Notes: a model not told the origin generated them from the sequence alone. A stretch of DNA of 51,789 nt, filler included, from Circinaria calcarea (GCA_051942165.1; 3 parts of 3 records of this genome joined end to end with filler, not necessarily neighbours in it); one strand, 5' to 3'; positions 45,020-45,301 are shown, numbered from the whole stretch's first letter. A program made the numbers and translations.

Positions 45020-45301
45020 TTATTTGTCGTTGATGGCGTGATAGGCATACACCACATCCTCATCCCGGTCGATGTCTGGATACACAATGTACTCGTCAAC
45101 ATCTAAGGCTGTCAACTCCTTGATCTTCTATTCGCTACCAAGTCCATGTTTTACCTTGAGTATCTGCTCGCGTTTTCAGAGCTACGTGCCTATGTTAGTG
45201 ATTGTACAATAGTTCTGAGATCTGTACCTACAATCAAAGGACAGTGGTGCAGCACATGCCATAATGCCCAGGCTGAGGATAATAAATGCGGAGATATGCA
45301 T
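45020..45301 (-). CDS. Small secreted 59-aa peptide; candidate RiPP (dikaritin-type) precursor; exons 45232-45301, 45155-45181, 45020-45102
   Basis: Spliced product is MHISAFIILSLGIMACAAPLSFDSLKTRADTQDVDEYIVYPDIDRDEDVVYAYHAINDK*. Intron 1 is 50 nt (GTAGGT..CTAAC..TAG) and intron 2 is 52 nt (GTAAAA..TTGAC..TAG). It has a hydrophobic signal peptide and two imperfect acidic repeats, and sits next to DUF3328 genes. Confidence 0.85.

Follow-up and report, generated by a model that had tools for sequence, protein, structure and literature searches.

The question raised by this locus of Circinaria calcarea is whether three tiny exons, divergent from a gene for a UstYa (DUF3328) oxidase, form a gene for a fungal RiPP precursor and, if so, what the neighbouring enzymes might make of its product. 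Within the window (i.e. the whole stretch of 51,789 nucleotides that was analysed), the minus strand from 45301 to 45020 splices in frame into exons of 70, 27 and 83 nt, separated by introns of 50 and 52 nt, which gives a coding sequence of 180 nt (stop included) for a protein of 59 amino acids. An earlier note on this DNA had proposed exactly this three-exon model; its coordinates and intron lengths were reproduced, and it is backed by homologues and by the codon pattern of exon 3. The gene consists of the following parts:

45232..45301, minus strand: exon 1, 70 nt, with the ATG at 45301 and the predicted signal peptide, 23 codons plus 1 nt
45182..45231, minus strand: intron 1, 50 nt, GTAGGT...CTAAC...GTAG
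45155..45181, minus strand: exon 2 (mini-exon, presumed to be used), 27 nt, variable linker with K-T-R
45103..45154, minus strand: intron 2, 52 nt, GTAAAA...TTGAC...TTAG
45020..45102, minus strand: exon 3, 83 nt including the stop codon, 27-residue acidic block rich in Tyr and His

The protein has the composition that the note had described, namely a signal part, a short linker with K-T-R and the DxDE-x-[IV]-V-Y stretches, and this layout equals that of homologues of 59-62 amino acids. Its N-terminus carries a hydrophobic stretch of 17 residues ending in A-C-A (an A-x-A site), with which it passes a crude signal-peptide rule (hydrophobic stretch plus A-x-A), so that a signal is predicted. The block encoded by exon 3 comprises two DxD[DE]x[IV]VY modules, followed by the tail A-I-N-D-K. 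The linker contains the K-T-R; the reported lack of dibasic sites was confirmed for the window copy, whose 59 residues contain neither KR nor RR. The internal half-repeat is modest in the window sequence (5 of 8 positions identical at an offset of 11, which was matched by 427 of 20000 composition-preserving shuffles), yet both halves are retained in every homologue.

From the window sequence alone the model would be weak, since 898 GT..AG models start from ATGs on the same strand of the spacer, signal-like ATG starts are no rarity (19 on both strands of the 51.8-kb window, versus a mean of 7.3 in 20 shuffles under the crude rule), and the donor of intron 2 is poor, GTAAAA deviating from the usual GTRNGT. 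The ATG of the precursor is nevertheless the sole signal-like start in the 1.9-kb spacer (44128-46035).

With a contiguous 35-codon frame containing exon 3 as the query, a protein search gave 22 hits at E<=1e-3; their identities are 66-89%, the best E is 4.7e-17, and 21 of them align up to their final residue. When a word-index search was done with the member from Mytilinidion resinicola, all 25 candidates of near length passed, while among 54 longer proteins the only one to pass was an N-terminally over-extended model from Clarireedia jacksonii. The C-terminal block is present in all 33 proteins of the family, with the tail A-I-N-D-K in 26 and G-I-N-E in 3 of them, and 32 are single-unit; the exception is the protein from Bathelium (P0001), in which the entire block of 27 residues occurs twice, the copies being separated by KR. 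Seven homologues of 59-62 amino acids annotated at NCBI (from Mytilinidion, Pseudopithomyces, Paraphaeosphaeria, two Periconia species, Hymenoscyphus and Thelotrema) consist of a signal part of 23 residues, a linker of 9-12 residues and the block of 27 residues, to which the window precursor conforms with 23+9+27. The signal region ends in A-[AV]-P in 12 of 12 full-length members, and in P0006 and P0023-P0027 residues 1-23 look like a signal and have this same ending. Ahead of the block, an Arg is found at a distance of 1-5 residues in seven of the eight annotated members, in P0025 (Periconia macrospinosa) as KR.

In the family alignments the first module leads into P-D, the second into A-Y-H. 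Of the block's Tyr residues, the three later ones vary little or not at all, while other members have W, F or T in place of the first aromatic of the candidate core (Y-I-V-Y). Behind the second D of the second module, about two in three members have R and about one in three has G; the G form reads D-x-D-G, a motif known from calcium-dependent lipopeptide antibiotics, and metal binding by the block, in which 9 of the 27 residues are acidic, is conceivable. The hosts span Dothideomycetes, Leotiomycetes and Lecanoromycetes, three classes of Pezizomycotina across which the block hardly changes, and the lichen-forming ones are Thelotrema, Bathelium and Trypethelium.

The note had called the gene invisible to the six-frame ORF track, which does not apply everywhere: homologues have been annotated in at least 11 NCBI records, with 'hypothetical' as the source name throughout. 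P0006 and P0027 match no Pfam family at E<=0.01 and the Pfam column is empty for all 25 homologues, while in the ESM Atlas no related cluster was found, the best feature score (0.81) being within the range of shuffled queries. Six strings of 6-8 residues from the block were found in no paper of the openly accessible literature that was searched (main texts), and within this scope the papers on UstYa, DUF3328, dikaritins and fungal RiPPs gave no description of the family. Structure prediction for P0006 yielded a disordered model (pLDDT 0.33), which fits a substrate peptide.

At the DNA level, a pattern scan of metagenome contigs yielded 18 loci, three of which were retained as fungal homologues and make four loci together with the window:

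window, 45020-45301: precursor gene described above
L001, 9872-10159: precursor gene
L002, 2789-3082: precursor gene
L003, 984-1265: precursor gene

The other 15 (L004-L018) were dropped as homologues, being G+C-rich (0.65-0.72) bacterial genes that have only the 14-residue stretch selected by the pattern in common; the one that was checked (L014:8345-11239, plus strand) encodes a 964-aa protein with DJ-1/PfpI and GlcNAc-2-epimerase domains. The latter half of the fungal block is nearly the same in sequence as this stretch, with 8 residues selected by the pattern and 3 more in agreement, and the resemblance is probably coincidence.

Between the four fungal loci, exon 3 differs by 11-16 synonymous versus 3-5 non-synonymous codons, with 15-18 differences at third positions versus 1-4 at each other position. 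Judged by this pattern, exon 3 is translated and is under strong purifying selection, and it is the only element of the three intergenic spacers of the window that is conserved with L001-L003. The exon structure is kept as well: the last exon has 83 nt in all four loci, counted from the acceptor through the stop codon, exon 1 has 70 nt in three of them (window, L002, L003), where position 71 of the gene begins the donor, and in all four a CTAAC-type branch site, an AG and a second donor delimit a mini-exon, of 33, 36 and 27 nt in L001, L002 and L003, respectively (the exons of these three loci being the best picks among alternatives). The donor of intron 2 is GTAAAA in L003 too. A model with one intron of 129 nt (gene positions 71..199) keeps the frame as well, with a product of 50 amino acids, but it is disfavoured, both by the branch site plus AG (~117-123) and the donor (~148-159) that are kept in all four loci, and by the 9-12-residue linker of the annotated homologues. 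Because of the homologues, the codon-position pattern and the conserved exon lengths, it is concluded from sequence comparison that the mini-gene is real and not a chance model.

The span from ATG to stop is divisible by three in each of the four loci (282, 288, 294 and 282 nt for the window, L001, L002 and L003), which places exons 1 and 3 in one genomic frame. The databases contain unspliced read-throughs of 93-94 amino acids (P0005, P0010 and P0029) as well as exon-3 fragments from prokaryote-style gene callers, an artefact whereby read-through products of the mini-gene have been deposited.

The two oxidase genes that accompany the precursor gene are:

46035..46928, plus strand: UstYa/DUF3328 gene 1, three putative introns, PF11807 at E 2.7e-14 and 1.9e-12
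47233..48006, minus strand: UstYa/DUF3328 gene 2, convergent with gene 1, PF11807 at E 2e-19

Matches to the HMM are found on each exon of gene 1; two of them score 54.0 and 48.0 bits, and gene 2 scores 70.8 bits, versus a gathering cut-off of 25 bits. Both genes retain two HXXHC motifs (HELHC and HA|DHC in gene 1, the second one being split by an intron, and HQLHC and HIRHC in gene 2). The start of gene 1 at 46035 gives an N-terminus that agrees with the alignment of orthologues, and from there to the ATG of the divergent precursor gene the distance is 733 nt, exactly as the note had it. The pairing itself is conserved in other fungi. In both L001 and L002 the precursor, the divergent UstYa1 and the convergent UstYa2 are arranged as in the window, L002 holding just these three genes in 3.1 kb, and the second, convergent UstYa is present wherever a metagenome contig extends far enough. 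Gene 1 is 62-68% identical to its L001 counterpart, gene 2 is 59-73% identical to that of L001 and 63-78% to that of L002, and over L001 and L002 together the UstYa identity to the window amounts to 55-78%.

L003 ends 983 nt upstream of the precursor, where its final 159 bases encode a divergent UstYa1-type N-terminus (an acidic-x-K-P-F-L stretch, then a membrane helix) at 825 nt from the precursor; this match is weak, with E 0.049 for an HMM of 19 orthologues versus 1.4e-5 and 2.9e-4 for the corresponding exon of L001 and of the window, respectively. When proteins were searched with the UstYa1 of L002, the orthologues that came up belonged to the same set of named species as the precursors. 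The locus tag of the orthologue from Hymenoscyphus fraxineus (00006119) directly precedes that of the precursor (00006120), and in five species both proteins are on contigs of equal size, which indicates the same contig but not adjacency. A position adjoining the precursor gene is also where DUF3328 genes were reported to peak (PMC7329392).

The UstYa1 of L002 (1489-2442, minus strand) is one open frame of 318 codons with an insertion of 15 residues relative to 18 orthologues, between the H-A and the D-H-C of the second HXXHC; this insertion most likely corresponds to the intron that the window gene has at this point, left unspliced and in frame. A complex prediction for residues 64-252 of the H. 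fraxineus UstYa1 with residues 20-62 of the precursor scored 0.02, which yields no verdict on binding.

Around these three genes, the window contains:

42252..44098, minus strand: MFS transporter gene (possible exporter), PF07690, downstream of the precursor gene
49134..50728, plus strand: O-methyltransferase gene (Methyltransf_2), PF00891 at E 2e-21
37713..39423, plus strand: cytochrome P450 gene, PF00067, with segments 35-56% identical to the P450 of L001 (45-1886)
39609..41057, minus strand: gene for a membrane protein with a fungal-rhodopsin domain, PF20684, with segments 33-40% identical to L001 6023-6710

The O-methyltransferase, the P450 and the rhodopsin-domain gene are common to the window and L001, in a different gene order. 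The window O-methyltransferase is 45% identical over 286 amino acids to one from L001, and the L001 rhodopsin-domain match to PF20684 (25.4 bits) lies under the cut-off of 27. For the MFS gene no counterpart was found in L001-L003. L001 has two O-methyltransferase genes in opposite orientation (2184-3609, plus strand, and 3709-4840, minus strand), which are 45% and about 41-43% identical to that of the window. A second P450 (35570-37193, minus strand) adjoins the conserved one; its match to L001 is short and weak (38% over 34 amino acids), and it may lie outside the conserved cluster. Just past the O-methyltransferase gene is a fragment of a DyP-type peroxidase (50974-51618, minus strand; Dyp_perox_C at E 1.6e-4, weaker than the cut of 1e-4), which as a phenol-oxidising enzyme would suit Tyr chemistry and is without a counterpart in L001. 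Upstream of about 35 kb the genes are of a housekeeping type (SAC3/GANP, ABC transporter, GH5, Ras), and a total of 176 N occurs in runs (assembly gaps), near 16.7-17.2 kb and near 34.5 kb. Between 34.6 and 51.8 kb, 102 ORFs reach at least 60 amino acids, not one of which gives a match at E<=1e-4 to a family of tyrosinases, peptidases, NRPS or PKS, and no tyrosinase, NRPS or PKS is found among the 43 ORFs scanned from L001-L003.

Following these results, it seems probable that the mini-gene encodes a single-unit, dikaritin-like RiPP precursor that is the substrate of the two adjacent UstYa oxidases. The signal peptide would direct the precursor into the ER and be cut off after A-x-A, after which the membrane-anchored, copper-dependent UstYa enzymes would oxidatively cross-link the peptide in the lumen. 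Ethers from the phenol oxygen of Tyr to a beta-carbon are known from ustiloxin, phomopsin and asperipin-2a, and the most plausible sites for such a link, here onto Val or Ile, are the twin acidic-x-[IV]-V-Y modules. The aromatic that precedes the first module varies (Y, W, F or T) and therefore cannot be the phenol donor; since it is variable while the three later Tyr residues are (nearly) invariant, one ring per module is proposed, from Tyr to a beta-branched Val or Ile. The O-methyltransferase and the P450 would then tailor the product, the variable linker would be removed at the semi-conserved Arg, the terminal Lys would be trimmed, and the MFS pump may export the product.

The note had divided the block into two candidate cores, which indeed match none of the strings YAIG, YVIPID and FYYTGY. 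With the 27-residue block duplicated as a whole in P0001 and the first aromatic being variable, such a division into two cores is a candidate reading only, and the block behaves as a single whole. With its full 27 residues conserved, the block would either survive largely in the product or be a recognition scaffold for several (four) enzymes. The note had also expected an undescribed product and an undescribed mechanism of release. The former part agrees with the lack of a paper or Pfam family in the searches above, whereas release is perhaps not exotic: because an Arg is near the block in seven of eight annotated members and in the window and a KR is present in Periconia macrospinosa and Bathelium, it is probably a kexin-like or monobasic cut with trimming of the terminal Lys, and not wholly new.

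A more far-reaching proposal, which is possible but for which the odds are rather against, is that of a distinct and widespread RiPP class, with a single-copy precursor whose strongly acidic core of ~26 residues, rich in Tyr and His, stays intact for the most part, a dedicated pair of UstYa copper oxidases that closes two rings (one per [IV]-V-Y module), tailoring by the O-methyltransferase and P450, and release at a monobasic Arg instead of Kex2 repeat processing. If that were true, many orphan UstY clusters, among them the ones of lichen fungi, would have their missing precursor in three-exon mini-genes like this one. Other ideas were considered as well, i.e. Tyr sulfation, a Ca-binding loop of the DxDG type, and a biaryl link between Tyr and His made by the P450 (as in the bacterial biarylitides). 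A cross-link at a PqqA-like E-x3-Y motif was considered too; no radical-SAM or Pqq genes lie nearby.

The assignment as a dikaritin-like substrate has points against it. Two hallmarks of dikaritins, Kex2-separated repeats and a tyrosinase, are absent, and a conservation over 27 residues is unlike the known dikaritin cores, which have 4-6 residues. Moreover, UstYa enzymes also serve non-ribosomal pathways (cf. the uncurated UniRef name 'cyclochlorotine biosynthesis protein'), the linkage in L003 depends on a weak match, and contigs of equal size demonstrate co-location but not adjacency.

One rival explanation is that the small secreted peptide acts unmodified (as a signal, an effector or a metal-binding peptide) and shares no more than a bidirectional promoter region with the UstYa gene, which would have some other substrate. 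It would agree with a family that is conserved in its own right, with the constraint on all 27 residues, as in a ligand, and with the lack of a Kex2 repeat architecture. It is nevertheless unlikely, as the arrangement with UstYa1 and UstYa2 has been kept while synonymous sites changed and the other genes were rearranged, H. fraxineus has neighbouring locus tags for the two genes, and the spacers hold no other conserved candidate for a substrate gene.

Quite unlikely too is an accessory role, in which the peptide would assist the UstYa pair instead of being its substrate (as a scaffold, a copper-delivering or inhibitory peptide, or a self-protection factor) and the enzymes would tailor a non-ribosomal or other product with a backbone gene located beyond the window. 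The occurrence of UstYa-family enzymes in non-ribosomal pathways (PMC12048977 and uncurated UniRef names) fits this, and the acidic His/Tyr block could bind metal ions. The window ends (at 51789) 3.8 kb past UstYa gene 2 and L001 begins inside a P450, i.e. each is cut on one side of the cluster, so that a backbone enzyme could sit just outside both. On the other hand, the 17 kb of the window that surround the genes have no NRPS or PKS domain, nor do the 43 ORFs scanned from L001-L003, and L002 is compact, with three genes only in its 3.1 kb. To our knowledge, secreted Tyr-bearing peptides adjoining DUF3328 genes have been substrates in every characterised case.

That the gene model arose by chance in an intergenic spacer, for which the abundance of tiny GT..AG exons (the 898 models on this strand) and the poor donor of intron 2 might speak, is excluded by homologues down to E 4.7e-17 whose matches end at the C-terminus, by the coding-type substitution pattern together with the conserved exon lengths, and by independent annotation in 11 named genomes.

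A single-unit substrate of the UstYa pair, as preferred here, has consequences for the way in which such precursors are sought. Fungal RiPP mining looks for a signal peptide followed by Kex2-separated repeats, by which mini-genes of this kind are missed, and the locus is a counter-example to that approach: a 59-residue, single-unit precursor spread over three tiny exons, conserved together with two oxidases. Precursor and oxidases have been kept in Dothideomycetes, Leotiomycetes and Lecanoromycetes, and the family shows a possible form that the precursor of the orphan UstY clusters of lichens could take. Two questions follow, namely what a UstYa pair, an O-methyltransferase and a P450 produce from a 27-residue acidic Tyr/His block, and how many orphan UstY clusters have mini-genes that were overlooked by ORF and repeat screens.

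Compared with known systems, the precursor is like UstA, PhomA and AprA in its signal peptide, its acidic-flanked Tyr segments and its DUF3328 neighbours with two HXXHC motifs, and the two KR-separated units of P0001 recall their Kex2 repeats. It differs from them in that 32 of 33 family proteins are single-unit, the unit has 27 residues, the window copy has no KR or RR, and a tyrosinase is lacking. While the clusters of ustiloxin and phomopsin have an N-methyltransferase, the window cluster has an O-methyltransferase instead. VicA (victorin) and GigA (epichloecyclin) are multi-repeat, kexin-processed precursors with cores that are unrelated to the precursor here. Both are similar to it as secreted precursors in DUF3328 clusters of Dothideomycetes and Sordariomycetes, according to reviews.

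The KEP criterion (several Kex2-flanked repeats behind a signal peptide; PMC7329392) does not describe the precursor, which is a single unit and has no dibasic site, so that KEX2-repeat mining would, as the note predicted, miss it. Dikaritins were originally delimited by a five-gene definition (Ding et al., quoted in PMC12048977). The predicted signal peptide, the multiple DUF3328 proteins with two HXXHC motifs and the transporter (MFS, with no peptidase) of that definition are all found at this locus, whereas the Kex2-separated repeats and the tyrosinase are not found in the window cluster. As for the methyltransferase, the cluster has a PF00891 O-methyltransferase that is conserved with L001, a type that PMC12048977 gives as unreported in dikaritin clusters. 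Under the redefinition of 2021, also quoted there, DUF3328 is the class-defining enzyme of the dikaritins, and by this enzyme-based definition the locus would count as one by gene linkage only.

The survey of lichen genomes in PMC12048977 (2025) describes UstY clusters with two DUF3328 genes and an O-methyltransferase but without a repeat precursor that could be found, and suggests a single core as a possibility. Its clans R1 and R2 are similar to the present cluster in having two DUF3328 genes plus an O-methyltransferase, and the precursor family described here is also found in lichen-forming fungi, while clan R1, which is described from Parmeliaceae, differs by a tyrosinase and an FGE-sulfatase gene. 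UstY enzymes have, according to PMC12186524, a dicopper site that with O2 forms ethers between the phenol oxygen of Tyr and a beta-carbon. The split-pathway cyclopeptide alkaloids of plants (precursor ArbA2, cyclase ArbB2; PMC12186524) are comparable as well, with a stand-alone precursor that has a recognition sequence and a short hydrophobic-x-Tyr core, and with an ether of the same type made by a copper enzyme; the twin [IV]-V-Y modules here look similar. ArbB2 differs in being a BURP enzyme, unrelated to PF11807 and from another kingdom, which makes it a likeness in the proposed mechanism only. By analogy, the locus most likely functions as a dikaritin precursor does.
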